DNA of 64,000 nucleotides from assembly GCA_963665385.1 (NCBI GenBank), contig OY762213.1, positions 1,058,313 through 1,122,312 on the forward strand. The letters are read 5' to 3'. Below, in pieces: positions 6,223-62,104 of this stretch. A program made the position numbers and the translations under genes. Numbering within the stretch: the stretch's first letter is position 1; each line of letters starts with the position of its first letter. Below the pieces are notes generated by a model that did no database searches, had not been told where the DNA came from, and saw only the letters and a program-made list of their open reading frames with translations. The stretch is from Dehalococcoidia bacterium (lineage in GTDB: Bacteria; Chloroflexota; Dehalococcoidia; UBA6926).

Positions 6223-7382
6223 TTGCCGACCTCACTCGTGATTTTCTGGAAAACTATCTGTCGACCGACATTGTCGACATCCTGATGCCGCTGCTGGGCT
6301 TGTTTATCGTCGTCAATATTCTGCTCGGCAGCGCGGTTATGCTGACCTACGCCGAGCGCCGCCTCGTCGCCCGAATGCAGAATCGCATCGGCCCGAACCG
6401 GGTTGGTCCGTTCGGCCTGCTGCAGGGCGTGGCCGATCTCATGAAGCTGGTGCTCAAGGAAGACCTGACGCCGCGGGCGGCAGACAGGCTTGTCTTTCTC
6501 ATCGCGCCGATCCTCTTCTTTGCACCAGCCATCGCGCTATTTGCCGTCGTTCCGTTCTTTGATGGGTGGACCGTAGCCGATCTGGACGCGGGCATTGTCT
6601 ATGTGATTGCCGTAACGTCCATATCGTCACTTGCGGCGTTTGCGGCGGGGTGGGCCTCGAACAACAAGTACTCGCTGTACGGCGCAGTGCGCGGCGTGGC
6701 GCAGCTTGTCAGCTACGAAGTGCCGCTGATCCTTGCGGTCACATCCGTGATTCTCCTTTCCGGTTCGTTGAACCTGCAGGAGATCGTTGAAGCGCAGGGC
6801 ATCCCGTTCGTGCTGGTGCAGCCTCTTGGATTCCTCATCATGTTGATTGCTGTCACCGCGGAGCTGAACCGAACGCCCTTTGACATCAACGAAGCAGAGT
6901 CGGAGATCGTGGCCGGTTTCCACACGGAGTACACAGGCACCAAGTTCGCGCTCATCTACGGCGCGGAGTATGTGGCGGCACTGGGCTGGTCGGCGGTCAT
7001 CGTCACCCTGTTCTTCGCGGGCTGGAAGCCGGACCTTGGCGGCATCATCTGGTTCGGCATCAAGACGTCGGCGATTGTATTCCTGTTCTTCTGGTTCCGT
7101 GGCACGTGGCCGCGTGTACGCATCGACCAGATGTTGGCGCTTGCGTGGAAGCTTCTGTTCCCGCTGGCGACGATAAACATTCTCGTCACGGCGGGCGAGG
7201 TGCTGGCGATGCAGGCGCTGTTCTCGCTCGAGCCGGGCGAGGCTCTGCCGGTCGCTGCGTTGGCCATCATCGCCGCGATCAACATCGGCCTGACCGTCGC
7301 GGTGCTGGCGCTGCTTGCACGAGTGCCGGGCCTTGCGAAGTTCGATCAACAGCTGGCGGCCCCGGCCGGGGCGAAGGTGTAG
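6219..7382 (+). CDS. nuoH: NADH-quinone oxidoreductase subunit H
   Basis: TYAERRLVARMQNRIGPNRVGPFGLLQ...MKLVLKEDL is the NuoH/ND1 signature. Overlaps the nuoD stop. Confidence 0.93.
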   Translation: MIADLTRDFLENYLSTDIVDILMPLLGLFIVVNILLGSAVMLTYAERRLVARMQNRIGPNRVGPFGLLQGVADLMKLVLKEDLTPRAADRLVFLIAPILFFAPAIALFAVVPFFDGWTVADLDAGIVYVIAVTSISSLAAFAAGWASNNKYSLYGAVRGVAQLVSYEVPLILAVTSVILLSGSLNLQEIVEAQGIPFVLVQPLGFLIMLIAVTAELNRTPFDINEAESEIVAGFHTEYTGTKFALIYGAEYVAALGWSAVIVTLFFAGWKPDLGGIIWFGIKTSAIVFLFFWFRGTWPRVRIDQMLALAWKLLFPLATINILVTAGEVLAMQALFSLEPGEALPVAALAIIAAINIGLTVAVLALLARVPGLAKFDQQLAAPAGAKV

Positions 7383-9061: not shown

Positions 9062-11038
9062 ATGCCGGAAGCAGCAGTCTGGTTGATCATTGCCGCGCCG
9101 CTCGCGGCGGCCGTTTTCAACGGCCTGATCATCCGTCCCCTGTTTGGGCCGGTGTCACGGATTGGATTCGATGCCACCGTCGGCGCAATCGGCATATCGT
9201 TCCTTCTTTCGCTCTGGGCGTTGTCCGTCGTCTGGACAGACCAGGAGGTCGTCCTTCCCTTACACGAGATTATCCGCGTCGATGAGTTTTCGCTTCGAAT
9301 AGGATTGCTGTTGGACGGGCTGACGGCCATCATGCTGGTTGTCGTGACGTCTGTGAGCCTCCTTGTGCAAATCTACTCGCACGGCTACATGAAGGAGGAT
9401 CAGAGCTACGTCCGGTACTACACCTTCATGGCCATGTTCACGTCGGCGATGCTGACGTTGGTCCTGGCCAACAACCTGATCCTGCTGTTTGTTGGCTGGG
9501 AGCTTGTCGGACTGTGTTCGTACCTGCTGATCGGGTTCTGGTTCACGCGACCGAGCGCGGCGGCGGCTGCCAAGAAGGCCTTTATCATCACCCGCTTCGG
9601 CGACCTCTTTTTCCTGCTCGCAATCCTCGGTATCTTCCTGCTGTGGCCCGACGATACGCCTGTCACGTTCGCCCTCAGCGACCCGAATGCCTCCATCGAT
9701 CTGCTCAGCGCGGGCGGTGCGGCGCTGACAGGGACGGGTCTGACGCTCATCTGCCTGGGCATCATGGCAGGCGCGGCGGGCAAGAGCGCGCAATTCCCGT
9801 TGCACACGTGGCTGCCGGACGCGATGGAGGGCCCCACACCGGTCAGCGCGCTCATCCACGCCGCGACGATGGTCGCCGCAGGTGTCTTCCTCGTTGCGCG
9901 GTTCCTGCCGCTGTTCGAGGAGGCGGAGACTGCGCGGACCATCGTTGCACTCATCGGCGGATTCACGGTCGTCTTTGCGGCGTCGATGGGCCTTGTGATG
10001 AACGACATCAAGCGCGTGCTCGCCTATTCGACCGTGAGCCAGCTGGGTTATATGTTCCTAGCACTTGGGTTGGGGGCGCTCGGCCCGGCATTATTCCACC
10101 TGTTCAACCACGCATTCTTCAAGGCGTTGCTGTTCCTTGGCTCCGGTTCCGTCAACCACGCCACCGGAACGTTTGACATGCGCTTGATGGGCGGGCTGCG
10201 ACGCGTCATGCCGTGGACGTACGGCGTATTCTTCATCGGCTCGCTGAGCCTTGCCGGCATCCCACCGTTCTCCGGTTTCTGGAGCAAAGACGAGATACTC
10301 GGCATTGCGTGGTCGTATGGCGGCACGCTGGGCACGATTCTCTTCGTACTCGCGGTAGTCGGCGCGTTCATGACGGCCGCCTATATCTTCCGTGCACTGT
10401 TCATGACATTCCACGGCAAGTACCGGGGCGGCGAGGCGCAGGAGGCGCACGGCACCGTGGACGCGCATGAGACACACGACGAGGGGCACGGCGCGACCCC
10501 GCACGAATCGCCGTGGGTCATGGTTATTCCGATGGCGATTCTCGCCGTGCTGGCAATCGGCTCCTGGTTCATCAATTTCCCGGTAACGCACTGGTTCACC
10601 GACCTCTTAAAGCCGCTTGGCGCGCACGTGGAAGAGATCCAGATCGTTCCCGCTGCTATTGGACTTGTGGCGGGTTTGCTTGGCATCGCAGTAGCGACGG
10701 CGCTGTACCGGGGCGGCGCGGTGAGCGCCCCGTCCATCAGCGGACCACTCGCTCCCATCACTAATCTGCTAACCCGCAAGTACTACATGGATGAGTTTTA
10801 CGAGGGCGTGATTGTGCGCTCCGTACTTTACGAGCGTCTGTGGCGGTTCCTCGCGTGGTTCGACAGCGACAAGGGCGTTGTGGACAGGGCAGTCAACACG
10901 CTGGGGCTATTTGGGCGCAACCTCGGCAAGGGTATTCGCGTCGTCGAGAACGGCCAGCTGCAGATGTCGCTCACGGTGTTGTCCATCGGCGCGGTAATCA
11001 TCGTGGCCGCATACGTCGTGTGGGGAGGCGTGGGCTAG
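9062..11038 (+). CDS. nuoL: NADH-quinone oxidoreductase subunit L
   Basis: 658-aa antiporter-like subunit (WLPDAMEGPTPVSALIHAATMVAAG) with the long C-terminal region typical of NuoL. Confidence 0.93.
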   Translation: MPEAAVWLIIAAPLAAAVFNGLIIRPLFGPVSRIGFDATVGAIGISFLLSLWALSVVWTDQEVVLPLHEIIRVDEFSLRIGLLLDGLTAIMLVVVTSVSLLVQIYSHGYMKEDQSYVRYYTFMAMFTSAMLTLVLANNLILLFVGWELVGLCSYLLIGFWFTRPSAAAAAKKAFIITRFGDLFFLLAILGIFLLWPDDTPVTFALSDPNASIDLLSAGGAALTGTGLTLICLGIMAGAAGKSAQFPLHTWLPDAMEGPTPVSALIHAATMVAAGVFLVARFLPLFEEAETARTIVALIGGFTVVFAASMGLVMNDIKRVLAYSTVSQLGYMFLALGLGALGPALFHLFNHAFFKALLFLGSGSVNHATGTFDMRLMGGLRRVMPWTYGVFFIGSLSLAGIPPFSGFWSKDEILGIAWSYGGTLGTILFVLAVVGAFMTAAYIFRALFMTFHGKYRGGEAQEAHGTVDAHETHDEGHGATPHESPWVMVIPMAILAVLAIGSWFINFPVTHWFTDLLKPLGAHVEEIQIVPAAIGLVAGLLGIAVATALYRGGAVSAPSISGPLAPITNLLTRKYYMDEFYEGVIVRSVLYERLWRFLAWFDSDKGVVDRAVNTLGLFGRNLGKGIRVVENGQLQMSLTVLSIGAVIIVAAYVVWGGVG

Positions 11039-42842: not shown

Positions 42843-43955
42843 ATGAACCACTCTCAGAAACGCATCGCAGTCCTTGGATCAACGGGGTCTATCGGCACGC
42901 AGACGTTGGACATTGTCCGCCGTCACCCTGACCGATTCCGCGTCGTCGGTCTTGCAGCGGGACACAACAGCGATGCCTTTCAGACGCAGGTGGCGGAGTT
43001 TCTTCCCACCCTGTCAGCCACTGGTGACGCTGCGACGCCGGAGGGACTTGCCCACATCGCGGGTAGCTCAAGCGTGGACGCCGTAGTCCTCGCCATACCG
43101 GGCCTCGCCGCACTTGCCCCTGCCCTTGCCGCCATCAAGGAAGGCAAGACAGTCGCCCTTGCGAGCAAGGAAGTCCTCGTTGTAGCGGGTGAACTCGTGA
43201 TGAGCGAGGTGGCCCGTACCGGCGCGGCGCTCCTCCCTGTTGACAGCGAACACAGTGCTCTCTGGCAATGTTTGGCGGGAGAGCCGAGCGATGCCGTTAG
43301 CCGCCTGATCCTCACAGCCTCGGGCGGCCCGTTCTTTAGGCGCAGCAATGAGGAGCTTGAATCGGTCACGCCCGAAGAGGCCCTCGCTCATCCAACGTGG
43401 CGCATGGGACCCAAGGTCACCACTGATTCCGCCACCCTGATGAACAAGGCATTTGAGGTCATGGAGGCGCGTTGGCTCTATGACATCGATTACGACCACA
43501 TCGATGTCATGATTCATCGACAGAGCATCGTCCACTCGATGGTTGAGTTCACCAACGGCACGCTCAAGGCGCAGCTCTCGATGCCGGACATGCGCCTCCC
43601 CATCCAGTACGCGCTCGCCTACCCGGAGCGTATCGAGCGCCCCTCAGATTGGCGGGAGATGGACTATTCCGTTGAACAGACTTTCGAAGAACTGGACCGC
43701 GACCGTTTCCCATGCTTCTGGATTGCAATTGATGCTGCCCGAAGCGGTAAGACATACCCCGCCGTCCTCAATGCCGCCGACGAAATCGCCGTTGAACTCT
43801 TCCTCTCCGGCGCCATCCCCTTCAACTCCATAGCAACTCTGATTAGGGACGCGCTAGACTCCCACACGCCTGTGAATCAGCCTACTCTTGACGACCTGCT
43901 TGCGGCTGACACGTGGGCGCGCGACCACGTCCGGAACGCGGCGAGAGAGCGCTGA
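42843..43955 (+). CDS. dxr: 1-deoxy-D-xylulose-5-phosphate reductoisomerase
   Basis: IAVLGSTGSIGTQTLDIV NADPH-binding motif and the Dxr C-terminal domain. Confidence 0.93.
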   Translation: MNHSQKRIAVLGSTGSIGTQTLDIVRRHPDRFRVVGLAAGHNSDAFQTQVAEFLPTLSATGDAATPEGLAHIAGSSSVDAVVLAIPGLAALAPALAAIKEGKTVALASKEVLVVAGELVMSEVARTGAALLPVDSEHSALWQCLAGEPSDAVSRLILTASGGPFFRRSNEELESVTPEEALAHPTWRMGPKVTTDSATLMNKAFEVMEARWLYDIDYDHIDVMIHRQSIVHSMVEFTNGTLKAQLSMPDMRLPIQYALAYPERIERPSDWREMDYSVEQTFEELDRDRFPCFWIAIDAARSGKTYPAVLNAADEIAVELFLSGAIPFNSIATLIRDALDSHTPVNQPTLDDLLAADTWARDHVRNAARER

Positions 43956-43956
43956 C

Positions 43957-45024
43957 GTGTCGATCCTCATCACCATCGCCGCATTTGCGGTCGTGCTCAG
44001 CTTCCTTGTGCTCATTCATGAGCTCGGACATTTCTGGGCGGCGCGTCTGCTCGGCATTCGCGTCCGGGAGCTCGGCATCGGCTTTCCGCCCCGCGCCAAG
44101 GGTTTCTGGCGTAACGGCATCGTCTATTCCCTGAATTGGCTGCCCGTCGGCGGGTTTGTCCGGCTTGAAGGTGAAAGCGACCCGACCGTGCCCGACGGCT
44201 ACGCGGGCAAGCCCGTATGGGCGCGGGTCACTGTTCTCGTGGCCGGCTCCGCCATGAACATCCTGCTCGCGTGGTTCATCTTCAGCGCCCTAGCTTCCCT
44301 GCCCGTCGACCGGCTCGTCGACAGCGAGATCATGATCGAAGAAGTGGTGCCCGGTTCCCCTGCGGACGAGGCCGGCCTGCGTGTCGGCGATGTCATCCGT
44401 GGCGTGGACGGTCAGGACATATTGACACTGGGGCAGCTCTCCGACCGCATCAACCGCGCGGACGGCGACGAAGTTGTGTTGCGCGTACTGCGTGGAACCG
44501 TCCCGCTTGCCGTCTACCTTGCTCCCCGTGCAAACCCCCCGCCCGGTGAAGGGCCCATGGGCGTGTCGATACGGCTTCTGAACCCCGTTTTTGAACGCAG
44601 CGCCGCGCCGGTCTGGCAGGCGCCATGGAATAGCATCGTCCTCATGGGCAATGTCATCACAAGCACCGCGACGGAGATCCAGCGCGTGGTCGGATCCTCT
44701 AGCAACCCCGGCATCGCCGGGCCGGTGGGTATTGCACAGGCAACGGGCGAAGCGGCGCAGGATGGGCCGATTTCCCTGCTGATCATCGTCGCCCTGCTGA
44801 GCCTCAACCTGGGCATCCTGAACCTGCTGCCCATCCCTGCCCTGGACGGCGGCCGCATCCCGTTCCTCATCCTGGAAGTTGTTCGACGCGGACGTCGCCT
44901 CTCGCCCGAGCGCGAGAACGTGGTCCACCTAATCGGCTTCGTCTTCCTGCTTTCAATGGTCCTCTTCGTCACCGTCGGCATCGACCTCCCCCGCCTCCTG
45001 GGCGGAGAATCAGTACTGCCGTAA
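43957..45024 (+). CDS. rseP: Regulated intramembrane proteolysis zinc metalloprotease (site-2 protease, M50) with PDZ domain
   Basis: HELGHFWAAR (HExxH), PDZ (GDVIRGVDG), and the LDGG motif region. GTG 43957 directly follows the dxr stop. Confidence 0.9.
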   Translation: MSILITIAAFAVVLSFLVLIHELGHFWAARLLGIRVRELGIGFPPRAKGFWRNGIVYSLNWLPVGGFVRLEGESDPTVPDGYAGKPVWARVTVLVAGSAMNILLAWFIFSALASLPVDRLVDSEIMIEEVVPGSPADEAGLRVGDVIRGVDGQDILTLGQLSDRINRADGDEVVLRVLRGTVPLAVYLAPRANPPPGEGPMGVSIRLLNPVFERSAAPVWQAPWNSIVLMGNVITSTATEIQRVVGSSSNPGIAGPVGIAQATGEAAQDGPISLLIIVALLSLNLGILNLLPIPALDGGRIPFLILEVVRRGRRLSPERENVVHLIGFVFLLSMVLFVTVGIDLPRLLGGESVLP

Positions 45025-45088
45025 ACAACCTCCGTTCCCCGTAAGACCCTCGGTTCACCCTGAGCATAGCGAACAATTTAAAGACGCA

Positions 45089-45117
45089 TTGCTACTCACA
45101 CAAATGTTCGCTAGAAT
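45089..45117 (+). promoter_or_regulatory. Near-consensus sigma70-like promoter (TTGCTA-N17-TAGAAT) driving the low-GC islet gene
   Basis: ttgcta (45089-45094), 17-nt spacer, tagaat (45112-45117), lying in a locally AT-rich intergenic region. Confidence 0.45.
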
Positions 45118-45201
45118 TTAGTCGTCAGAATGGAGAGTGCCGCGCCTGAGGCAGATGCTGCGCCAGCAACGCGGTTAGTGAGCAGAGAATCGCGGGGGTA
45201 G

Positions 45202-46209
45202 GTGAGGCAAATGATGGCAAGCTACCAGCCTAATGCAGACGACTATATCTGGCCGGGCTTTCCCTGCGTTACTTTTCCAGGAGGAGGTCTCAACGGAATC
45301 GTCCAAGTTGAAGACTCCCCGAGATCAGGTGGGGGTTACACGATTGATTTTGTTGGCAGGATGAGAATTCAAGATCGTAATCTCCTTCTTCATCATCGCG
45401 CTCTTTTGACTTCAATGCTGATTGACTTGCGGGAGCAAGGTGAGCAGTGGCCACAGGTAACAGTCGATCTAATCAACAGAGCAATTTCGGCTCAACCAAT
45501 GTCAGTAGATGAGCGGGCAGTTAGACTCCTTCGCTTCTTAGCAGGCTCGACCACCGAAATAGGCAAGGCATATAACATAGATCGTGGTATGCACCAATTG
45601 CTCGCTTGGTCAGAATCCACGAGCGCAGGCGAAGTTGGTTACTTAGTAGACTATCTCATTAATCAAGAATGGCTCGCTGGAGTTGCAGGAGCTAAGGCGC
45701 GCTATGGTGATTACCTAGTCCCTAGTGATATCAGAGTCACAGTCAGCGGACACCGGAAAGTCGCGAATGAGAGTGCGCTAGTTCAATCTGCTCAAGGATT
45801 TGTCGCAATGTGGTTGGGTGAATCTATAGCGGATGTGTACGAGAGCGGAATTCGGCCCGCCATAGATGATTCAGGCTTCAAGCCGATGCGAATAGACCAA
45901 GAGAACTTCACTGAGAGAATCGAAGACAGAATCATCGCAGAAATACGGCGGTCGCGATTTCTGGTAGCCGACTTTACACATGATGCAAGAGGGGCTCGTG
46001 GCAGTGTCTATTATGAGGCCGGTTTTGCACATGGGCTTGGCTTAGACGTTATCTTCACTTGTCAACGTGACCAGGTGGACGAGCTTCACTTTGATACTAG
46101 TCACTACCCACACATCACCTGGACATCTCCCGAAGATCTACGAAACCAACTTACGACTCGTATTCTGGCGGTAATCGGAGAAGGGCCCCTAACGCAGTCC
46201 GTTCAATAA
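45202..46209 (+). CDS. Low-GC acquired gene: an unknown N-terminal domain of about 210 aa fused to a C-terminal DNPH1/Rcl/nucleoside-2-deoxyribosyltransferase-like (TIR-related Rossmannoid) domain
   Basis: Codon and GC composition are clearly lower than the flanks (about 40-50% versus about 65%). The C-terminus has RSRFLVADFT...GSVYYEAGFAHGLGLDVIF, matching the NDT/DNPH1 catalytic-glutamate motif (ADVVVAEVT...GVGYELGRAVA). I recognise nothing in the N-terminal half. Confidence 0.6.
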   Translation: MRQMMASYQPNADDYIWPGFPCVTFPGGGLNGIVQVEDSPRSGGGYTIDFVGRMRIQDRNLLLHHRALLTSMLIDLREQGEQWPQVTVDLINRAISAQPMSVDERAVRLLRFLAGSTTEIGKAYNIDRGMHQLLAWSESTSAGEVGYLVDYLINQEWLAGVAGAKARYGDYLVPSDIRVTVSGHRKVANESALVQSAQGFVAMWLGESIADVYESGIRPAIDDSGFKPMRIDQENFTERIEDRIIAEIRRSRFLVADFTHDARGARGSVYYEAGFAHGLGLDVIFTCQRDQVDELHFDTSHYPHITWTSPEDLRNQLTTRILAVIGEGPLTQSVQ

Positions 46210-46318
46210 CCCCCACCCCTGACATCCAGTCTCACTTCCACTGATTCTCACGCCCCCTATGGTATGGTGGAAGTAAGCATTAGGAAGAAATCGACGCGCG
46301 CGGACAGGAGTAGGTCCG

Positions 46319-47467
46319 ATGAATCAAAGACGTCTTTCCCGGCAGATCCAGGTAGGTGATGTCCCCGTCGGTGGCGATGCTCCCATTGCCATCCAGTCCA
46401 TGACCAAGACGGACACACGGGACGCCGAAGCAACAATCTCCCAGATATATGAGGTCGCCGCAGCCGGATGTGACATCATCCGCCTCGCAGTGCCCAACAT
46501 GGACGCCGCCGCGGCCCTCAAAGAGATCTGCAGCCGCGCTCCCATCCCCGTTGTCGCAGACATCCACTTCCATCACCTGCTGGCGCTTGAGGCCATCAAG
46601 AATGGCGTCAGCGGCATCCGACTGAACCCCGGCAACATCCGCGACGCCGACAAGGTGCGTGAGGTCACGACCCTCGCCAAGGAATACGACATTCCAATTC
46701 GAATTGGCGTCAACTTCGGTTCCCTGCCGCCCATCGGCGGCATCGGCAAGACCGGTGATTTCCACCGCCTTGCGGACGGCGTCAACAAGCTCGCCAAGGC
46801 CAGCCAGGAGGGCGAAGGCGACTACACCGTCGTCGACCACATGGTGGCAACCGCCCTGTGGGAAGTCGGAATCCTGGAGGAATTGGGATTCGACCAGATC
46901 AAGATCTCCGTCAAGGGATTCGATGTTCCCATGACAGTCCAGGCCTATCAGCGGGTCGCCGAGCAGGTCGACTATCCCCTGCACTTGGGAATCACCGAGG
47001 CGGGCACGCCGTTTGGCGGCTCGATCCGCAGCGCCATCGGCATTGGACACCTGCTCCACGAGGGCATCGGTGATACCATCCGCGTCTCGCTCGCCGGAGA
47101 CCCCGTGAAGGAGGTCGAGGCCGGTTGGGAGATCCTCAAGTCGCTTAATCTTCGCAACAAGGGCGTCACGCTCATCGCCTGCCCGTCCTGCGGCCGCGCC
47201 GACGTTGACATCATCAAGTACTCACAGATGGTGGACGAGGCTCTCAAGCAGGTCGACAAGCCCGTTCGCGTGGCCGTCATGGGCTGTGAAGTCAACGGCC
47301 CCGGCGAGGCAAAGGATGCCGACGTGGGAATCGCTGCGGGCAATGGCCGCGGCATCATCTTCCGCAAGGGCGAGAAGGTCCGAGTCGTTCCTGAGGACGA
47401 GTTCGTCTCTGCCCTCATGGAGGAGATCGAGAAGATCGAAGTCGATCCCGAGCTCGCCGCAACCTAG
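46319..47467 (+). CDS. ispG: 4-hydroxy-3-methylbut-2-en-1-yl diphosphate synthase (flavodoxin/ferredoxin)
   Basis: GcpE motifs (IQSMTKTDTRD, CPSCGR). Confidence 0.93.
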   Translation: MNQRRLSRQIQVGDVPVGGDAPIAIQSMTKTDTRDAEATISQIYEVAAAGCDIIRLAVPNMDAAAALKEICSRAPIPVVADIHFHHLLALEAIKNGVSGIRLNPGNIRDADKVREVTTLAKEYDIPIRIGVNFGSLPPIGGIGKTGDFHRLADGVNKLAKASQEGEGDYTVVDHMVATALWEVGILEELGFDQIKISVKGFDVPMTVQAYQRVAEQVDYPLHLGITEAGTPFGGSIRSAIGIGHLLHEGIGDTIRVSLAGDPVKEVEAGWEILKSLNLRNKGVTLIACPSCGRADVDIIKYSQMVDEALKQVDKPVRVAVMGCEVNGPGEAKDADVGIAAGNGRGIIFRKGEKVRVVPEDEFVSALMEEIEKIEVDPELAAT

Positions 47468-56672: not shown

Positions 56673-59099
56673 ATGACGGGTACGAACGACAACGGCAATT
56701 CCAACACCGATCAACAGGGCGCGCTCAACCACCTGCGAATCATCGAGTACGGTGACATTCCCGCCTCATACGCCGCACGATGGCTTGGCGACCTCGGCGC
56801 GGACATCATAAAAGTTGAGCCGCCCGGCGGTGATCCCAACCGTCACCTGCCCCCATTCGCCGGCAACGTCCAGGACCCGGAGCGCAGCCTCGCGTTCATC
56901 AACGCCAACCTCAACAAGCGTTCCATCGTGCTCGACATCATTGACTCCGATGCCGACCGCCAAAGCTTTGTCGACCTGCTGGTGGGTGCTGACGCCCTAA
57001 TCGAGGCCACGCCCCCAGGCACACTCGAGTCCATCGGCCTCACACAGGAGTCGTTGCTGGGGCGCAATCCCCACCTCGTCACAACATCAATGACCCCATT
57101 CGGCCAGTGGGGCCCCTATTCCGATTACAAGGGCAGCCACGCCGTCATTGAAGCCATCTCCGGATTCATGAGCGCCCACGGTGATGACACAATGCCGCCG
57201 GTCGCGACACCCGCCCACCAGACCTACCAGGTCGCCGCCGTCCATGCCGCCTACCTCACACTTGCCGGCATCCGCCATGCCCGCCTCACCGGCGCAGGAC
57301 AGCGCATCGATCTCTCCATCGCAGAGGCCACAACCTACATGGGTTCCAGCGCCATCGCCCGATACACGCAACGCAGCGAGATTGTGGAGCGCAACGGCTC
57401 CAAGCCCCAGGGCGGCGCATCAAACATCTTCCGCTGCAGGGACGGCCGCTACGTCTATCTCTCCATCTACATCCTCCCCCACTGGCACCTAATCACGCGT
57501 GAATGGATGGAGGATGCCGTCCTCTCCGCTCCCGAGTGGGACGACCAGGAATATCGCGGCGCGAACGATGACGTCATCAACGCCATATTCCAGTCGTTCA
57601 TCGAGCAGTTCGACGCCGATGAGTTCGTGGAGGAATGTCAGCGCCGTGGCCTGCCCTGCGCACCCGTCAACACGCCCGGCGATTTCCTTACCAGCCCGCA
57701 GCTCACCCACCGCCAATGGATCCAGGAGCTGGAGCATCCCGTCATTGGCAAGTACCGCGCCCCCGGCTTCCTCTTCAAGATGAATGAGACGCCAATGCGC
57801 GCATGGCGACACTCACCCAAGCTTGGTGAGCACCAGCAGGAAATCCTGGCCGAAGCGCAAAACAAACGGCAACCCATCGCCGCCTCCGCCTCTCGCAACG
57901 GCCACGCGCAGGATGAATCCATGCTCGCCGGTGTCCGCGTTGCCGACCTCACCCGCTTCTTTGCAGGCCCCATCGGCACCATGTTCCTTGGCTTCTACGG
58001 CGCGGAGGTCATCAAGGTTGAATCGGAGCTGCTCGTCGCCAATCGTGACGCCAATGGCCCCCTCTACCCTGACATGAACCGCAACAAACTCAGCGCGACC
58101 ATCGATCTGCGTCATGAGGACGGCAAGAAACTCATGGACAGCCTGCTCAAGGAGAGTGATGTCTTCGTTGACAATTTTTCTCCGCGCGTGATCGACCGCC
58201 TTGGCTTTGGGTGGGAGCACAACCGTGAGGTCAACCCCGGTGTCGTCCAGATTACCGCGCCCGGCATGGGGCTGGACGGTCCCCTCACCTCGTGGGTCAC
58301 GTGGGGCAATCAACTCGTCGCCTACACCGGCCTCTGCTCCATGTGGGGATTCAAGGAATCGGAGATGGCCGCGCACGGCAAGCTCGTCATACCGGACTAT
58401 CTCGGCGCCAGCCTCATCGCCCTATCATCCATCTCTGCGCTCGAATACCGCGACCGCACCGGCAAGGGACAGTTTATTGAACTCGCGCAGGTGGAGGCGC
58501 AGGGCGCAATCATGGGCCCAGCCATCCTGGATTCCACTGTCAACGGAAACGAATGGGAAGCGATGGGCTACAACGAGGTCCTCGGCAGACACTACGCTCC
58601 CTACGGGGCATATCCCTGCAAGGGCGACGATGAATGGATTGTCGTAGCCGTAGAGACAGACGAGGAGTGGCAGGGTTTCGTGCAGGCGATGGGTTCACCG
58701 ACCTGGGCACAGGATCCCGCCTACTCCACCCATGGCGGCCGTGTTGCCGCAAAAGACGATCTCGACGCACAGATCGGCGATTGGACGCGCGCCTACACCA
58801 AGCGGCAGGCCATGCGAATCCTGCAGAAGAACGGCGTCCCGGCCGCCGCCAAGTATACCGGCGAAGACCTCTATTCAGACGTCCACTTCCGCCAGCGCGG
58901 ACACATCGTCGATGTCCATGAGCCGCCGTGGGGCGACCTCTCCCACCAGGGCCTCCCGGGCATCCCCTCGCTGGCCGAAGCGCACGGCGACGGCCCCCCG
59001 CCCTGGATCGGCGTTCACAACGACTACGTCTTCAAGACCCTGCTGAGCCTCACCGACGAAGACTACGCAGAAGGCCAAAACTCCGGCGCCATCCGCTAA
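56673..59099 (+). CDS. Fusion of two family III CoA-transferase (CaiB/BaiF) domains
   Basis: Two consecutive CoA_transf_3 units: LRIIEYGDIPASYAARWLGDLGADIIKVEPPGG..., and LAGVRVADLTRFFAGPIGTMFLGFYGAEVIKVES...; 808 aa. Confidence 0.8.
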   Translation: MTGTNDNGNSNTDQQGALNHLRIIEYGDIPASYAARWLGDLGADIIKVEPPGGDPNRHLPPFAGNVQDPERSLAFINANLNKRSIVLDIIDSDADRQSFVDLLVGADALIEATPPGTLESIGLTQESLLGRNPHLVTTSMTPFGQWGPYSDYKGSHAVIEAISGFMSAHGDDTMPPVATPAHQTYQVAAVHAAYLTLAGIRHARLTGAGQRIDLSIAEATTYMGSSAIARYTQRSEIVERNGSKPQGGASNIFRCRDGRYVYLSIYILPHWHLITREWMEDAVLSAPEWDDQEYRGANDDVINAIFQSFIEQFDADEFVEECQRRGLPCAPVNTPGDFLTSPQLTHRQWIQELEHPVIGKYRAPGFLFKMNETPMRAWRHSPKLGEHQQEILAEAQNKRQPIAASASRNGHAQDESMLAGVRVADLTRFFAGPIGTMFLGFYGAEVIKVESELLVANRDANGPLYPDMNRNKLSATIDLRHEDGKKLMDSLLKESDVFVDNFSPRVIDRLGFGWEHNREVNPGVVQITAPGMGLDGPLTSWVTWGNQLVAYTGLCSMWGFKESEMAAHGKLVIPDYLGASLIALSSISALEYRDRTGKGQFIELAQVEAQGAIMGPAILDSTVNGNEWEAMGYNEVLGRHYAPYGAYPCKGDDEWIVVAVETDEEWQGFVQAMGSPTWAQDPAYSTHGGRVAAKDDLDAQIGDWTRAYTKRQAMRILQKNGVPAAAKYTGEDLYSDVHFRQRGHIVDVHEPPWGDLSHQGLPGIPSLAEAHGDGPPPWIGVHNDYVFKTLLSLTDEDYAEGQNSGAIR

Positions 59100-59155
59100 C
59101 CACAGTACCCTCCCCCCCTCTGTGCTACAGTACCAGCGCAAAAGGACGTGCTCAG

Positions 59156-62104
59156 ATGCCCCCCACGGCCCGGATAACCTTTACGCTCGCCGCTGCATTG
59201 GCGGCGCTGATTCTCGTACTGGCCGCGTGCGAAAGCCCAACCCCAACTCCGACACCTCCCCCCTCCCCAACCCCAACGCCTGAGCCGACACCTGAGCCGG
59301 CCCCCGTGGAGCGTCTGGCCTGGTTCGATGCGCCGACAGATGTCCCGCATTGGGTCGCGTGGAGCGCGCTTCGCCGAATGGCTATTGACGACGAGCCCCT
59401 GAGCCAGCAGATAGCCTCGCTCGAGTGGGTGATTGACGGCATAACCGCCGAAGAGGCCGGTGCCCTCGACGACTTATCTTGGCTTCTTCGAGAGAATCCT
59501 GACATCGCTGCTACAGCCCTGAACCTGCCGTGGATGGCGACGAACGGCGACATTACCCCGGATGACCGGCGCGCCATCCGCGCCGCAGCGGATGCCGACG
59601 CCGAACTCGGCGCTGAGCTTGCCGCCTACGGCTGGCTCCCGGATGGAGCCACGACAGTTGAAGCCGATGCATTGGAAACCCTCGGAGAAATCGTTGCTCC
59701 CGGATTCACCACCCAGACCGCTACCGGCATCGGCGCGATGCGAATAGACCGCTCCGACAGTGGTGCACCGCCATTAGTCTCCCCTGGAAGGCTTGAATTC
59801 GCCTTGTCTCTCTCTCAATTCTCCTGGATGCAAGACGACGTAACATCGCCTGAAAGTGAATTTATCGCCAACCTCAGCGAATTCACTGAAACGGTCGGCA
59901 GCCACCATGCTGACGCGGTGGACACTATCGCGTCCTATGACTGGGTCCAGGACGGGATAGCAACGGACGAGCCTGATTCGCTGTTGAGCTATGGGCCCCT
60001 CTTCGAGGCTGCAGGCGAGGAAGACGGCGATGTACTGGAGATCATCCTCGAATACGAGTGGATTGCAGATAACCTGCTTTCAACTGAAACGCGCTATGTT
60101 GGGATACTCACTTCCCTCCTCAACGCCGGTTCTGCTGATGATGCCGACGTAATTCGAACAATGGTTAGCTACCGTTGGCTCGCGGGCTCGATCAATCCCC
60201 CTGAATATGTCCTGCTCAATGAATTCACCAATCTTCTGCGCGTGGAGGAAACCGAAGGAGCGGATTATCGTCAAGACATACTGGGTTTTGACTGGCTCTC
60301 GGACGAAGTCACCACCGAAGAAATCGCCGGTTTCCAGCTCCTGTCCAATTCCGTCGAACACCTCTTGCCGCAACGCCCGGACGCCCTGGATTCCCTGCTC
60401 GCATATGAATGGCTGCAGGATGATGTCCGGGAAGACGAAGTTTCCTCAATCCGCGCATTGGGGCGAGTTATTGGACACTACGGTGTCGATACCGACGACT
60501 TCATCGGCGCTTTAGTCGCACGACCCTGGCTGCGCGACGGCGTACAGGAGAACGAAGATCGGCTTCTGGACGAATACGACGACTACTTGTCTTATGAACG
60601 TCCTCCTGACACTACCGTGCCGTCGCGCCTCGCAACGTACCCGTGGCTGGATGATGGTATAGCAGACATTGAATTGTGGTTCATTGACTCAGCAATGACC
60701 TTCCATCGTGAGTTCTCCTCAATCGCTCCCGAAACCGCTAATGCCATCATCCAGAATTCAGGATTGGATCCTGATTCCCTTGAAGGTGTTATAGACATAT
60801 TCTGGAACTTCAGAGAGGTCGTAGCTGCATCCAATTCAGTGTATGACGGCAACCTTACTCTCGAAATTACTCGCCTCCCCTGGTTGTTTGATGGCATGGA
60901 ACGTTTGGAAGGTCGGTGGTTGTCCGAATACGCCTGGCTCTTGCGTGAGCTCGATGGAGGGAACGAGGAATTGGCGCGTTCCCTACTCGCTCGGCCGTGG
61001 GCTCGCGACGGAATCTCAGCCCAGGAGCAGGAATGGACGCATCAGTATCGCCGCCTTTTGGAGGAAATACCCGCAGAATCCCGCGGAATGGCACTCGAAT
61101 TCGCTGACTTCCCTTGGTTTCAGGAGCAGATTGATTTCATGGCGGCGGGAATCATGGGCAGAGTGGCCCTCCTCGCCCTCAATAACGATCCGGTTATTAC
61201 TGACCAGAATTGGTTCGGTGAAGGGATCAGCGAGTCGGACGTGATTAGGCTAATTGCCCTCCTTGACGCGAAAGCCCGTTCCAAATTCCAGTACGAGGAT
61301 CTATTGGAACAGAACCATATTGCTCAACGGACTGTAACACTCCCACTCGCCGGTGACGTTGGGCTGTACGTCGTACGGCACACGGAGTTCCCGGATGACG
61401 ACCCCACGCTTGACTTGATGGAGCAGGTTATCGTGCACCTCGAAGAGTTCATGGGCGTGCCGTTTCCCCGCAATCCATCCATCACACTGATTATCGAACC
61501 CAGCACTCGGGCGGGAGAAACGCCGCAATTCGGCGTGGCGTACGCCGCCTTATCGCACATTGTTTCCTCCGCCCCTCGCCATAACCCCGGCTTCCATCTT
61601 GCCATCTTTCATGAAATGTCCCACCTGTATTGGGGGGGCCACAACGGCGCCCTGCCATGGTGGAATGAAGGCGCGGCGGGCTTTCTGCCGGACATCGCGC
61701 GGGACGCGCTGGGACATGAAACCCTGGAAGAGCGGCACCATCAACTGCTGTGGGACACGCGAAACGGTTGCTGGCATCAGGGCGTCACTACTATTTCCAG
61801 GTTTTACCACTTGCAGAAAACGCAGCCGCAAGTTGCGCGAGATCGCGGAATCTGCATCTACGCCCTTGGCGAGATATTCCTGATGGAGATGTACCTGCTA
61901 TTGGGTCGGGATGCCACATCCGCCGCGATGCGACAGATATACGTTGATGCCCGTGACTCCGGTTGGCTTGATCCCATCACGGATCAGCAAATCTATGACG
62001 CGTTTCGGGCCAACACGCCGGATGATAAATTCGATGACTTCCGCAGATTGTTCCTGCGCCTCCACGGCGGCTCCCGCGTCGACCTCTCCGAATCGGCCCC
62101 CTAG
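59156..62104 (+). CDS. Large secreted lipoprotein with about 17 copies of a short W-x-D-G repeat and a C-terminal M1-like gluzincin metallopeptidase domain
   Basis: Signal peptide plus lipobox (ALILVLAAC) and a Pro/Thr linker. Repeats of the form Y/F-x-W-[LVI]-x-D-G-[IV]-x-x-x-E (for example YDWVQDGIATDE, YEWLQDDVREDE, RPWLRDGVQENE). C-terminal HEMSHLYW...WWNEGAAGF matches the M1 HExxH-x(n)-E (HELAHQW...WLNEGFA) signature. The repeat region is low-GC. ATG 59156 chosen over the track's 58928, which overlaps the CaiB gene. Confidence 0.7.
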   Translation: MPPTARITFTLAAALAALILVLAACESPTPTPTPPPSPTPTPEPTPEPAPVERLAWFDAPTDVPHWVAWSALRRMAIDDEPLSQQIASLEWVIDGITAEEAGALDDLSWLLRENPDIAATALNLPWMATNGDITPDDRRAIRAAADADAELGAELAAYGWLPDGATTVEADALETLGEIVAPGFTTQTATGIGAMRIDRSDSGAPPLVSPGRLEFALSLSQFSWMQDDVTSPESEFIANLSEFTETVGSHHADAVDTIASYDWVQDGIATDEPDSLLSYGPLFEAAGEEDGDVLEIILEYEWIADNLLSTETRYVGILTSLLNAGSADDADVIRTMVSYRWLAGSINPPEYVLLNEFTNLLRVEETEGADYRQDILGFDWLSDEVTTEEIAGFQLLSNSVEHLLPQRPDALDSLLAYEWLQDDVREDEVSSIRALGRVIGHYGVDTDDFIGALVARPWLRDGVQENEDRLLDEYDDYLSYERPPDTTVPSRLATYPWLDDGIADIELWFIDSAMTFHREFSSIAPETANAIIQNSGLDPDSLEGVIDIFWNFREVVAASNSVYDGNLTLEITRLPWLFDGMERLEGRWLSEYAWLLRELDGGNEELARSLLARPWARDGISAQEQEWTHQYRRLLEEIPAESRGMALEFADFPWFQEQIDFMAAGIMGRVALLALNNDPVITDQNWFGEGISESDVIRLIALLDAKARSKFQYEDLLEQNHIAQRTVTLPLAGDVGLYVVRHTEFPDDDPTLDLMEQVIVHLEEFMGVPFPRNPSITLIIEPSTRAGETPQFGVAYAALSHIVSSAPRHNPGFHLAIFHEMSHLYWGGHNGALPWWNEGAAGFLPDIARDALGHETLEERHHQLLWDTRNGCWHQGVTTISRFYHLQKTQPQVARDRGICIYALGEIFLMEMYLLLGRDATSAAMRQIYVDARDSGWLDPITDQQIYDAFRANTPDDKFDDFRRLFLRLHGGSRVDLSESAP

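Follow-up and report, generated by a model that had tools for sequence, protein, structure and literature searches.

Defence genes of bacteria can gather in hotspots that are flanked by core genes and lack mobility genes, and abortive-infection genes can reside within restriction-modification operons, as PrrC does in type Ic operons. TIR, CAP12-TIR, Abi_C and Schlafen/AbiC are known abortive-infection or NADase effector domains, and Rossmannoid SLOG/TIR-like domains are ligand sensors in some systems. The type II retron effectors (Retron-Eco1/Ec86) combine an N-terminal nucleoside 2-deoxyribosyltransferase (NDT)-like domain with a winged-helix DNA-binding domain (PMC7736814), and the NDT-like effector of retron Ec86 depletes adenine derivatives (10.1101/2023.08.16.553469). 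In the DUF4062/NIR domain a catalytic Glu is used for NAD+ depletion (10.64898/2026.09.04.749371).

In this report, a one-gene islet between rseP and ispG of a Dehalococcoidia bacterium is described. The window is the whole stretch of 64,000 nucleotides that was analysed, and the features discussed are listed in Table 1. A first-pass annotation of this DNA had proposed that the islet is a horizontally acquired conflict system consisting of a single gene.

The rseP-ispG junction as a cargo hotspot

In 47 of 48 genomes whose IspG is less than 80% identical to that of the window, the gap between rseP and ispG is <300 bp (median 48 bp), and the claim that the two genes are normally neighbours is thereby confirmed. 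Of 14 close species-level Dehalococcoidia genomes, 10 carry inserts of 885-2095 bp at the same junction; in the other four the site is empty and the gap measures 105-127 bp. Adjacency without the cargo gene, which a synteny comparison had been expected to reveal, is therefore seen in four close genomes and in most distant ones. The closest relatives (IspG 89-100% identical) have other cargo or nothing at the junction. The IspG of L009 is 100% identical to that of the window, yet DUF4238 takes the place of the window gene. L001 is the sole other genome with the window gene at the hotspot (62% identical). No relative carries the gene at this locus with native composition, since this only other carrier has a low-GC copy too.

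The cargo found at the hotspot includes Phd-like antitoxin and PIN pairs, DUF4238 (E 1e-29), an Abi_C/AbiJ-like gene in L017 (E 1.3e-26 with Pfam and 5.9e-11 with PADLOC), a trypsin-like PDC-S45 gene (E 4.5e-25) and, in some close genomes, unknown genes. The GC content of all hotspot cargo is 50-57% compared with 62-64% in the flanks. Variable defence and toxin-antitoxin genes at one core junction and an atypical composition are the operational marks of defence-hotspot cargo, and both are seen here. The AbiJ-like cargo of L017 was considered as kin of the N-terminal module of the window protein and no link was found. A literature search found no paper describing a hotspot at rseP-ispG.

Composition, borders and origin of the islet

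The window as a whole averages 60.6% GC, with an sd of 2.0% among segments as long as the islet, whereas the islet has 50.3% (z = -5.2), the lowest value anywhere in the 64 kb. The dip reported at first pass is real and the strongest in the window, but the figures given for it (about 40% against 65-70%) were too extreme, the true ones being about 50% and 61%. The GC3 of the cargo ORF is 44.9% compared with 70-79% in frr, uppS, cdsA, dxr, rseP, ispG and mcm.

In alignments to relatives, homology between genomes stops at the rseP stop codon, which is the left junction, and on the right 94.7% identity to L009 picks up again at 46207. The conserved block upstream of ispG is found in all relatives, empty-site genomes included. 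The window rseP, whose ORF as listed opens at 43888 (TTG), is 98% identical to the copies of L009 and L010 and 67% identical to that of L001, and the window IspG is 92% identical to its L001 counterpart. In L001 the gene at the rseP position has PF02163/PDZ Pfam matches and the gene at the IspG position has a GcpE match.

The claimed absence of an integrase, a tRNA and a target-site duplication held. No tRNA genes lie within the 64-kb window, its ORF list contains no integrase, and neither a target-site duplication nor an att site was found at the islet junctions, the right-hand conserved block having no second copy at the left. Additionally, the ORF list shows no phage genes inside or adjoining the islet, a search of the islet for remnants of Phd/PIN or DUF4238 cargo returned none, and the islet holds no second ORF, thus no small antitoxin gene was found. 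An Rfam search of the islet gave no match and a terminator scan found no terminator.

Horizontal acquisition, as proposed at first pass, is favoured by the other or missing cargo of the closest relatives and by the composition of the family, whose members have 49-53% GC in hosts of 57-63% GC. Between the window and L001 copies of the cargo gene, dN and dS are equal to those of rseP and dxr; vertical inheritance of the two copies would be compatible with these values and is conceivable. Against a long residence, GC3 has not been ameliorated (45-52% vs 70-79%) and the intervening relatives are without the gene.

Table 1. Features at the rseP-ispG junction, in window coordinates.
Feature	Position	Strand	Remarks
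rseP, left core flank	43963..45024	+	Site-2 protease, Peptidase_M50 + PDZ
Low-GC cargo islet, ~1.19 kb	45025..46212	.	From GC and alignment junctions
Degenerate partial copy of dispersed palindromic repeat, CACCCTGAGCCTGTCGAAGGGTG	45055..45077	+	
Inverted repeat TAGCGAACAATT / AAATGTTCGCTA	45067..45113	+	Brackets -35 box; overlaps spacer and -10
Putative sigma-70-like promoter, TTGCTA-17-TAGAAT	45089..45117	+	9/12 positions match
Shine-Dalgarno-like AGGTGAGG	45200-45207	+	5' of cargo start
Cargo CDS, 331 aa	45214..46209	+	ATG start; 100% identical to database protein P0001
Small four-stranded beta subdomain, aa 1-45	45214..45348	+	Invariant W13, R37; motif SPRAGGxY
Helical segment then winged helix-turn-helix, aa 46-176	45349..45741	+	Winged helix ~aa 98-176
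Linker helix, aa 177-193	45742..45792	+	Between sensor-like module and effector domain
NDT/DNPH1/TIR-like Rossmannoid domain, aa 194-320	45793..46173	+	Presumed N-glycosidase effector
Codon GAG for E268	46015..46017	+	Invariant Glu in GGVYYEAGFAxGLG; candidate catalytic nucleophile
Conserved block 5' of ispG, CCCCTGAYAWCCAGTCTCA ... TATGGTAT ...	46213..46318	+	Right edge of hotspot
ispG (GcpE), right core flank	46319..47467	+	100% identical to Dehalococcoidia MAG DAOUHQ010000002.1

The cargo gene and its upstream region

A palindromic repeat is the only left-side element common to the hotspot junctions. Its intact form occurs at the hotspot and elsewhere in related genomes, and the window contains no full copy. 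The inverted repeat around the -35 box could be an operator, but neither L001 nor L012 has kept it. The near-consensus promoter noted at first pass stands in so far as it is kept 5' of the L001 orthologue and, with 86% identity over 37 nt, 5' of another cargo gene in L012, but shuffled sequence likewise yields one such promoter-like site, so that their number is that expected by chance. The 5' leader folds no better than its shuffles (z = -0.34).

The cargo gene could also start at 45211 (ATG) or 45202 (GTG). The ORF is intact and all family-invariant residues are kept, and a dN/dS of ~0.14 against the L001 copy indicates purifying selection. An NCBIfam search with the cargo protein gave no match, and none of its matches reaches a curated family threshold. 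Searches of PDB sequences with full-length and C-domain profiles returned chance matches only (ParA, Nup98 and CFAP115; E 0.7-1.7). The confident AF2 model of the full-length protein (pLDDT 89.8) has three parts, which are an N-terminal beta/helical part, a winged helix and a C-terminal NDT/TIR-like Rossmannoid domain.

The N-terminal module

The AF2 model of the N-terminal module has a pLDDT of 93.5, and residues 46-176 contain the conserved motifs ARLTT, ERAxRLLRF and AWSES. A BFVD fold search with the module found nothing at E < 0.008. A profile search with the module retrieved 1,219 protein clusters (50% identity clusters). It was determined that the module is fused to TIR_2/TIR in 9 clusters checked, to CAP12/Pycsar-TIR (E 3e-39) in some clusters, and also to Abi_C and to SLFN_AlbA_2 with putAbiC. 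The first-pass annotation had called the N-terminal half unrecognised and novel. It is a widespread module that is also joined to other effectors; for its residues 1-45 no structural match was found.

The C-terminal domain

The C-terminal domain had been assigned to the NDT/DNPH1/TIR kind, and both structure and profile searches support this. In a Foldseek search with the AF2 model, the domain has a Rossmannoid flavodoxin-like fold that can be superposed on solved NDTs. The top PDB matches are of the NDT/DNPH1/BcmB kind (2a0k, 8qc0, 9emx, 6qai, 7o62, 4jen and 8rpt), with a probability of 1.00, target-normalised TM scores of 0.5-0.72 and modest E values of 3.5e-4 to 5e-3. TIR folds are also matched, namely the SfSTING TIR (7un8, E 9.9e-4), SPARTA TIR-APAZ (8i87, 8ifl and 8oz6) and SARM1 (9ugj). 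The order of the matches is NDTs first, then SfSTING-TIR, SPARTA TIR-APAZ, BcmB, DNPH1 and SARM1.

The PADLOC model PDLC00733 (388 positions, described as 'TIR') is matched by all 70 family members analysed (best E 1.7e-13), so the C-terminal domain is shared by a model that derives from a catalogued defence effector; the match is limited to the C-terminal 110 positions of the model and leaves its first 258 positions unmatched. The model is named 'Effector', which we take to denote CBASS-type effector clusters. The matches to PF05014 and DNPH1 that had been expected both appear, in Pfam and Foldseek respectively, but PF05014 stays below its gathering threshold: the score of the window protein is 14.1 bits (E 0.053), the threshold being 28.8, and the weak matches of 68 of the 70 members (best E 6.3e-6) are all below it too. 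The weak match covers the strand-loop-Glu region. With E <= 1 allowed for the window protein and E <= 0.1 for any of the 70 members, none of the TIR profiles PF13676, PF01582, PF08937 and PF10137 was matched, and DUF4062 (PF13271) is absent from the Pfam results of all of them. By curated thresholds, the window protein is outside the Pfam NDT and TIR families.

The Glu of YYEAG, E268 (E272 if numbered from the GTG start), is invariant in 70/70 family members, as the first-pass annotation anticipated. D238, D253 and R262 are also invariant, and the invariant Arg residues of the domain are R226, R245, R246, R248 and R262. E268 aligns with E98 of LlNDT, which is named as catalytic (10.1101/2023.08.16.553469), and with E104 of DNPH1; the equivalence holds at the level of the motif only, since it comes from low-probability hhalign runs with manually entered reference sequences. 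The residues of LlNDT that contact the deoxyribose, Tyr7, Asp72 and Asp92, were also compared. In a weak hhalign alignment, again to a manually entered reference sequence, Tyr7 falls on Gly or Ala and Asp92 on the invariant R262, and for this reason classical NDT chemistry appears unlikely in the window protein.

Relatives and their neighbourhoods

For the full-length protein, 2,913 homologues could be detected; the family extends over Chloroflexota, Pseudomonadota, Bacillota and Spirochaetota and also occurs on plasmids and viral contigs. Relatives lie directly 3' of hsdS within type I restriction-modification operons (L002/L003 and L005), next to hsdM and a Schlafen ATPase (L008), in a DndB/HSDR_N/SMODS/BrxC island (L139), beside HigB (L004) and, on a Leptospira plasmid, between a SEFIR protein and a large methyltransferase (L090). 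The relatives in L138, L140 and L006 stand alone among housekeeping genes, which is neutral evidence. The gene neighbours of family members differ from genome to genome. A 234-aa protein was considered as an obligate partner and rejected; it is encoded 3' of the gene in L002/L003 and L139 (59% identical) and not elsewhere. Additionally, relatives occur on 46 viral contigs of IMG/VR and PHROG phrog_16139 is matched (E 3e-33), and a tblastn search of GenBank phages gave no match to the cargo protein.

RefSeq names the plasmid relatives 'nucleoside 2-deoxyribosyltransferase'. The cluster names of ten NCBI/ENA relatives were checked and none carries a name. No family name was found in the profile libraries searched or in the literature, and a name may already exist.

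Proposed function and alternative explanations

A foreign-looking insert, a gene that joins a module to an effector domain, and the defence and toxin cargo of relatives together make the islet a promising candidate for an antiphage system that is new and consists of one protein. Both the cargo at the hotspot and the location of relatives in restriction-modification operons and defence islands strengthen the first-pass reading as a conflict system, which would fit the sequence evidence. We consider it rather probable that the islet is clade-specific hotspot cargo encoding a stand-alone, one-polypeptide sensor-effector of abortive infection or defence that acts by NAD+ or nucleotide cleavage. 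The data show the composition, the junctions, the variability of the hotspot, the fold class, the conservation of residues, the exchange of effectors on one N-terminal module and the defence-type neighbourhoods; we infer the defence function, the sensor role, the substrate and the activation mode of the window protein.

According to this explanation, the islet would have arrived by recombination via its conserved flanks, with no dedicated integrase. The N-terminal module (beta subdomain and winged helix) would be a sensor or regulator that keeps the NDT/TIR-like domain inactive until an infection cue binds; the likeliest cue would be a nucleotide-type ligand or a nucleic acid. Oligomerisation, as in NDTs and TIRs, would probably activate the protein, and its E268 would cleave N-glycosidic bonds, with NAD+ as the favoured substrate and (deoxy)nucleotides as the alternative. 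The infected cell and phage replication would be arrested as a result. Instead of sensing, the role of the winged helix could just as well be autoregulation or DNA targeting.

The alternative that survives best keeps the architecture and the defence role and changes the chemistry, and we regard it as possible though on the unlikely side. The effector would be a nucleotide N-glycosidase of the DNPH1/BcmB/MilB type and not an NADase; it would cleave (deoxy)nucleoside monophosphates, possibly phage-modified, or remove bases from nucleic acid held on the winged helix, and phage replication would be starved or damaged. NDTs, BcmB (a CMP N-glycosidase) and DNPH1 are the best matches in both sequence and fold, level with or above the TIRs, the GxxYExGxA motif is NDT/DNPH1-like, and the five invariant Arg residues could bind phosphate. 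The Ec86 retron provides the precedent of an NDT-like effector that depletes adenine derivatives, and embedding in restriction-modification operons would suit the targeting of modified-DNA phages that escape restriction. However, paralogues fill the same slot with canonical TIR or CAP12-TIR, whose known defence activity is on NAD+, the matching PADLOC model is labelled TIR, and the sugar-contact residues of NDTs appear unconserved in the weak alignment.

A wider version, in which the N-terminal module is an unrecognised and widely shared infection sensor for interchangeable effectors (NDT-like, TIR, CAP12-TIR, Abi_C and Schlafen/AbiC) and the NDT-like version cleaves (modified) deoxynucleotides or excises bases, and not NAD+, seems doubtful to us. 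Within this sensor reading, it is similarly speculative that a conserved nucleic-acid or nucleotide signal is recognised and that the NDT-like chemistry complements the restriction-modification operons that harbour relatives. We would also give only limited credence to the notion, again within the sensor reading, that base excision or deoxynucleotide cleavage by a stand-alone protein would be new as a defence chemistry.

It is improbable that the protein is no effector and instead a winged-helix transcription factor that regulates itself or its neighbours, with the NDT/SLOG-like domain serving only as a sensor of a nucleotide ligand. In its favour are the winged helix, the inverted repeat around the window promoter and the use of Rossmannoid SLOG/TIR-like domains for ligand sensing in some systems. 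However, the Glu and its motif are invariant in all 70 members as expected of a catalytic site, the inverted repeat is missing from L001 and L012, and the partners swapped onto the module (TIR, Abi_C and Schlafen/AbiC) are toxic effectors and not sensors. Additionally, there is no fixed regulon, since the neighbours differ in every genome.

Still more improbable is that the gene stems from a phage or is selfish, for instance as a prophage moron, a solitary toxin remnant or a gene for superinfection exclusion, and passes through the hotspot with no benefit to the host. The relatives on viral contigs and in phrog_16139, and the toxin-antitoxin modules that also gather at the hotspot, agree with such traffic. 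The lack of phage genes in or beside the islet, the intact ORF with its family-invariant residues, the low dN/dS and a conserved putative promoter of its own speak against it. This explanation overlaps with the preferred sensor-effector, since a prophage-borne exclusion gene would still have a defence function.

A housekeeping NDT for salvage that is merely richer in AT than its surroundings is scarcely credible, as the RefSeq name of relatives and the weak PF05014 match are outweighed by a score below the Pfam threshold, absence from the closest relatives in favour of toxin-antitoxin or Abi-type cargo, a GC3 of 45% vs 70-79% in neighbours, fusion to a 190-aa module that also occurs with TIR and Abi effectors, sugar-binding positions that appear changed in the weak alignment, and relatives in restriction-modification operons and defence islands.

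Implications

If the sensor-effector is confirmed, an unnamed and widespread family will join the catalogue of single-protein antiphage systems. A new sensor module would come with it, and five effector types would be available for the study of its trigger. Whether NAD+ or nucleotides are the target of NDT-like domains outside retrons could then be tested as well. In the streamlined genomes (~1.9-2.4 Mb) of uncultured Dehalococcoidia, the rseP-ispG junction forms a compact natural 'cassette site', and it shows how defence genes are exchanged there without integrases. It is also a simple handle for mining more of the uncharacterised inserts, among them the 365-aa and 413-aa genes of L014 and L012.

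Comparison with known systems

Two kinds of system can be set apart by gene content. No small antitoxin gene adjoins the window gene and the islet holds no Phd/PIN remnant, unlike type II toxin-antitoxin systems. No cyclase-like ORF is present between dxr and mcm, unlike CBASS and Pycsar systems, and the PADLOC match covers an effector domain only.

The type II retron effectors share with the window protein a divergent NDT-like Rossmannoid domain and a winged helix in one polypeptide, and they serve abortive infection with the NDT-like domain as the toxic part (PMC7736814; 10.1101/2023.08.16.553469). The domain order is reversed, as the NDT domain is N-terminal in the retron effectors and C-terminal after the winged helix in the window protein; compared with the retron effectors, the window protein has one more subdomain, the beta/helical one at its N-terminus. 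The window gene has no reverse transcriptase or msr/msd beside it (Rfam gave no match), and the protein matches neither a PADLOC retron model nor, by sequence, the solved Ec86 effector structures.

The NADases used for comparison were the TIR effectors of Thoeris (ThsB), SPARTA (TIR-APAZ), CBASS (TIR-STING) and CAP12/Pycsar-TIR and the NIR/DUF4062 effectors of Avs2, Vulcan and Vesta. Like these, the window protein has a domain of the Rossmannoid fold class with a candidate catalytic Glu that follows a beta-strand and a loop. This domain is likewise swappable behind a sensor-like module, and paralogues carry TIR or CAP12-TIR in its place. Unlike them, it matches none of PF13676, PF01582, PF10137, PF08937 and PF13271, the gene has no partner such as ThsA, Argonaute or a cyclase, and the motif is closer to that of NDT/DNPH1. 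The NDT, DNPH1 and BcmB/MilB N-glycosidases provide the top structural matches (2a0k, 8qc0, 4jen and 8rpt) and a weak but consistent PF05014 match. The window protein differs from them in its sub-threshold Pfam score, in sugar-binding positions that appear unconserved in the weak alignment and in the fusion to a 190-aa sensor-like module, and it differs from salvage NDTs in being encoded by a sporadic, horizontally moving gene tied to defence islands.

The locus itself resembles other core-flanked defence hotspots in its fixed core flanks and its variable, low-GC defence and toxin-antitoxin cargo. Unlike them, the rseP-ispG site is tiny, with one or two genes in a segment of ~10-20 bp, and it is confined to one Dehalococcoidia clade. 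Relatives of the window gene are inserted between hsdS and hsdR in an arrangement like the embedding of PrrC.

A single gene of foreign composition, with its own promoter-like site, occupies the rseP-ispG junction of the window, and this hotspot otherwise carries toxin-antitoxin, Abi and candidate defence genes. The first-pass annotation put the islet at about 40% GC against 65-70% around it. The GC trough is real but its size was overstated, as a sliding-window profile gives 49-52% GC at 45.0-46.3 kb versus 60-65% on both sides, and the insert has 50.3% GC, the minimum among same-size windows over 64 kb (mean 60.6%, sd 2.0%, z = -5.2). The GC3 of the cargo ORF, the single long ORF of the region, is 44.9% versus 70-79% in frr, uppS, cdsA, dxr, rseP, ispG and the downstream mutase gene. 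The 331-aa version of its product is identical to the database protein P0001. A motif scan located the TTGCTA-N17-TAGAAT promoter-like site that had been claimed; no terminator-like site was found in the scan of the islet, no Rfam match in the islet and no tRNA gene in the 64-kb window.

Islet composition and junctions

In the junction alignments, inter-genome homology ends at the rseP stop codon and restarts ~105 bp before ispG, in a conserved block (CCCCTGAYAWCCAGTCTCA ... TATGGTAT ...), and these two points define the insert; at empty sites only ~10-20 bp separate the stop codon from the block. No copy of the right-hand block was found on the left side in these alignments, and no integrase, tRNA or target-site duplication was found at the islet junctions, in agreement with the initial reading. 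Homologous recombination in the conserved flanks, with replacement of the cargo, would be the most economical mechanism. The cassette promoter and leader are recognisably common to the window, L001 (a metagenomic contig with the same cargo; counterpart at ~9870-9910) and L012 (a locus with different cargo), and over 37 nt that include the promoter, L012:4124-4160 matches window 45085-45121 at 86% identity. This hints at a resident promoter with exchangeable downstream cargo genes.

Related genomes have, in intergenic DNA on either side of ispG, a dispersed palindromic repeat (CACCCTGAGCCTGTCGAAGGGTG) that often adjoins GTCATTCCCGCGAAAGCGGG-type palindromes and could be a REP-like element aiding recombination at the hotspot. 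In the leader of the cargo gene no unusual RNA structure was detected (z = -0.34), and a 23-codon upstream ORF (MESAAPEADAAPATRLVSRESRG) stops at the putative ribosome-binding site. The -35 box of the promoter is flanked by the arms of a 12-nt inverted repeat (TAGCGAACAATT / AAATGTTCGCTA, 92% complementary), which also extends into the -10 region. Autoregulation via the winged helix could use it as an operator, but the repeat is conserved in neither L001 nor L012. The second-lowest GC of the window (53-55%, ~59600-61000) lies inside an ORF whose start resembles a signal peptide and which also encodes a Pro/Thr-rich linker, numerous acidic repeats rich in W and D and, at the C-terminus, an HExxH-like motif (FHEMSH). 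A secreted repeat protein or metalloprotease is a possible product, with a composition that would be foreign or repeat-driven.

Features of the islet, the cargo protein and related loci (L, loci from other genomes or contigs; P, database proteins with the same N-terminal module; [gene], the NDT-like gene)
Feature	Location	Strand	Details
Insert	window 45025 to ~46212		junction alignments
Palindromic repeat, degenerate copy	window 45055-45077		
Inverted repeat	window 45067-45078 / 45102-45113		
Promoter-like TTGCTA-17-TAGAAT	window 45089-45117	+	motif scan of islet
Upstream ORF	window 45131-45202		
Cargo ORF	window, starts 45202 GTG / 45211 ATG / 45214 ATG, end 46209	+	ORF scan
Four-stranded beta subdomain	aa 1-45		AlphaFold2 model
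Helices, then winged helix	about aa 46-176		AlphaFold2 model
Linker helix	aa 177-193		AlphaFold2 model
Rossmannoid alpha/beta domain	aa 194-320		AlphaFold2 model
1058-aa ORF	window 58928-62104		
Palindromic repeat	L014:4467-4489, 7321-7343; L017:4720-4742, 7345-7367; L015:2597-2619; L012:11217-11239		
Gap cargo	L010, L011, L013, L064		Phd/YefM-like antitoxin + PIN toxin
Gap cargo	L009		DUF4238 protein (E 1e-29) + orphan Phd-like antitoxin
Gap cargo	L018		DUF4238 + Phd + PIN
Gap cargo	L012:4249-5490		413-aa coiled-coil/membrane protein (weak LeoBC, ZorA similarity) + Phd-like gene
Gap cargo	L014:4793-5890		365-aa protein without match
Gap cargo	L015		trypsin-like protein, candidate defence family PDC-S45 (E 4.5e-25)
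Gap cargo	L017		Abi_C/AbiJ-like protein (E 1.3e-26 Pfam; 5.9e-11 PADLOC)
Phd/YefM-like gene adjoining ispG	L009:5598-5882; L012:5595-5885; also L010, L011, L013, L018, L064		orphan (no PIN toxin) in L009 and L012
Neighbourhood	L002/L003		hsdM ... hsdS-[gene]-234 aa-ThsB_TIR-8xMP-HSDR_N-hsdR
Neighbourhood	L005		hsdS-[gene]-MNT/HepT; gene overlaps hsdS by 4 bp
Neighbourhood	L008		hsdM, transposase, Schlafen/HATPase gene just upstream
Neighbourhood	L139		DndB-[gene]-234 aa-HSDR_N, then SMODS + BrxC
Neighbourhood	L004		HigB + unknown gene upstream
Neighbourhood	L090		Leptospira plasmid: SEFIR protein-[gene]-large methyltransferase
Neighbourhood	L091		Bacillus mycoides megaplasmids; near IS6 element + integrase
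Solitary among housekeeping genes	L006/L007, L138, L140		
234-aa protein	L002:9107-9811; L139:9184-9888		59% identical
Module + TIR_2/TIR	P0123, P0142, P0152, P0174, P0176, P0190, P0198, P0232, P0242		
Module + CAP12/Pycsar-type TIR	P0209		E 3e-39
Module + Abi_C	P0128		
Module + Schlafen AlbA_2 + putAbiC	P0228		

The rseP-ispG gap across genomes

Dxr, RseP, the cargo protein and IspG were placed by tblastn in 80 related loci. The window's IspG matches that of the Dehalococcoidia MAG DAOUHQ010000002.1 at 100% identity and those of a set of Dehalococcoidia genomes of ~1.9-2.4 Mb at 89-99%. Where IspG is less than 80% identical (48 genomes), the median rseP-ispG gap is 48 bp and 47 of the gaps are <300 bp, so the two genes are normally adjacent, as had been proposed. 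In the close clade the gap is empty (105-127 bp) in 4 of 14 species-level genomes (L016, L019, L020, L024) and filled by 885-2095 bp of other DNA in the remaining 10. None of these ten encodes the cargo protein, including L009 (IspG 100%, RseP 98% identical to the window) and L010 (99% and 98%).

The ORFs in the filled gaps were scanned against Pfam and PADLOC, and every gap cargo has 50-57% GC versus 62-64% in its own flanks. The rseP-ispG junction of the close clade is a cargo hotspot. Neither Pfam nor PADLOC gave an informative match for the 365-aa and 413-aa cargo genes, which are further candidate defence genes because of their location. A Phd/YefM-like antitoxin gene adjoins ispG repeatedly in the clade; where it stands beside newer cargo as an orphan it may be a trace left by successive insertions.

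The more distant L001 has the cargo gene, 62% identical, at the same junction (IspG 92%, RseP 67% and Dxr 71% identical to the window). The same gene with native composition was not seen at this locus in close relatives, as the close clade lacks it and the L001 copy is also low in GC (48-53% versus about 60%). Between window and L001 the cargo gene has a dN of 0.25 and a saturated dS of about 1.75, the same as those of rseP and dxr, and the omega of about 0.14 indicates purifying selection. The two copies may reflect old residence with repeated loss or separate acquisitions. Old residence is at odds with the unameliorated GC3 and with the fact that all intervening relatives lack the gene, and for these reasons we favour turnover.

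The cargo protein and its relatives

Detected homologues of the full-length cargo protein number 2,913; the top 120 are full-length and 44-62% identical, and none is named. In an alignment of 70 homologues the C-terminal half is very conserved, with the motifs FVAMWF, KIDDEIIAEIRRSRFLVADFT, GARGGVYYEAGFAHGLGLPVIF and LHFDT and invariant residues that include D238, D253, R262, E268 (the Glu of YYEAG, numbered from the ATG at 45214) and D294. The AlphaFold2 model from this alignment is confident (pLDDT 89.8, pTM 0.70). The C-terminal domain had been annotated as NDT/DNPH1/TIR-like, which was borne out by a Foldseek search against the PDB, where nucleoside 2-deoxyribosyltransferases (NDTs) came top (2a0k, E 3.5e-4; 8qc0), followed by SfSTING-TIR, SPARTA TIR-APAZ, the CMP N-glycosidase BcmB, DNPH1 and SARM1. 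The expected PF05014 match was found in 68 of 70 relatives but is sub-threshold in the cargo protein, where it is the sole Pfam match (14.1 bits versus a cut-off of 28.8). All 70 members match the C-terminal 110 positions of PADLOC PDLC00733 ('Effector', 'TIR'; best E 1.7e-13). In low-probability hhalign runs with approximate reference sequences, E268 falls opposite DNPH1 E104 and L. leichmannii NDT E98, the NDT catalytic residue (10.1101/2023.08.16.553469), and R262 falls at the position of NDT Asp92; by these alignments, the sugar-contact positions of NDT seem not to be retained. Given the fold matches, the retained Glu and the sub-threshold Pfam score, the domain belongs to the NDT/TIR fold class, outside the curated NDT and TIR families.

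The N-terminal half, said at first to match nothing recognisable, is indeed unnamed but is a widespread module. Its profile matched 1,219 clusters among 1.84 billion representative proteins, most of them the same NDT-like fusion or its fragments, and it was also found in proteins with TIR, CAP12-TIR, Abi_C and Schlafen-AbiC effectors (module matches at E 1e-45 to 1e-66). Sensor-effector defence proteins are usually built in this way, with one constant N-terminal module and swappable toxic C-terminal domains. Since TIR and CAP12-TIR domains are joined to the same module, the NDT-like domain occupies the slot filled elsewhere by known NADase domains.

Family members have 49-53% GC in hosts of 57-63%. 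Relatives at 32-51% identity are present on 46 IMG/VR contigs and in PHROG 16139, and GenBank phages gave no match. RefSeq names the plasmid relatives 'nucleoside 2-deoxyribosyltransferase' or 'hypothetical protein'. In two unrelated restriction-modification-linked islands a 234-aa protein without a Pfam match lies 3' of the NDT-like gene and 5' of HSDR_N-domain genes; none of the other loci has this protein, so its link is probably with the restriction-modification context and not with the NDT-like gene.

Proposed function

The horizontal one-gene conflict system proposed from the sequence gains support from the hotspot cargo, the effector swapping and the relatives in restriction-modification and defence islands, and we consider it likely that the cargo gene serves in defence or conflict. 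With less assurance, we lean towards a full sensor-effector N-glycosidase account, in which the protein would be a stand-alone abortive-infection or defence factor. Its N-terminal module would detect an infection cue, perhaps a nucleic acid or nucleotide to judge from its winged helix and the many invariant Arg residues, and would then free the C-terminal domain or assemble it into an active oligomer. E268-dependent N-glycosidic cleavage would halt the infected cell, with NAD+ as the favoured substrate and nucleotides as the alternative.

Comparison with known systems

The retron Ec86 NDT-like effector depletes adenine derivatives (10.1101/2023.08.16.553469), and DUF4062/NIR NADases use a catalytic Glu (10.64898/2026.09.04.749371). 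TIR NADases likewise offer a precedent for a catalytic Glu, for which the invariant E268 is the candidate in the cargo protein, and Metis is a precedent for a single-protein 'ligand sensor + NAD-degrading effector' system. However, the cargo protein is below the Pfam NDT threshold and has no profile match to TIR or DUF4062. Unlike type II retrons, the gene has no reverse transcriptase or ncRNA, and the domain order of the retron effectors (PMC7736814) is the reverse of its own. No cyclase, ThsA or antitoxin partner accompanies it. The family has no name in the PADLOC 2.0, Pfam, NCBIfam or PHROGs models, though it may have been named recently, and no description of it was found in the literature. 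By analogy, the cargo protein would work like these known systems yet falls outside the definition of each, and we rate it as a putative single-protein sensor-effector defence with a Rossmannoid N-glycosidase. The family is large, its putative sensor module is both new and modular, and in this uncultured lineage the hotspot offers a neat site for mining.
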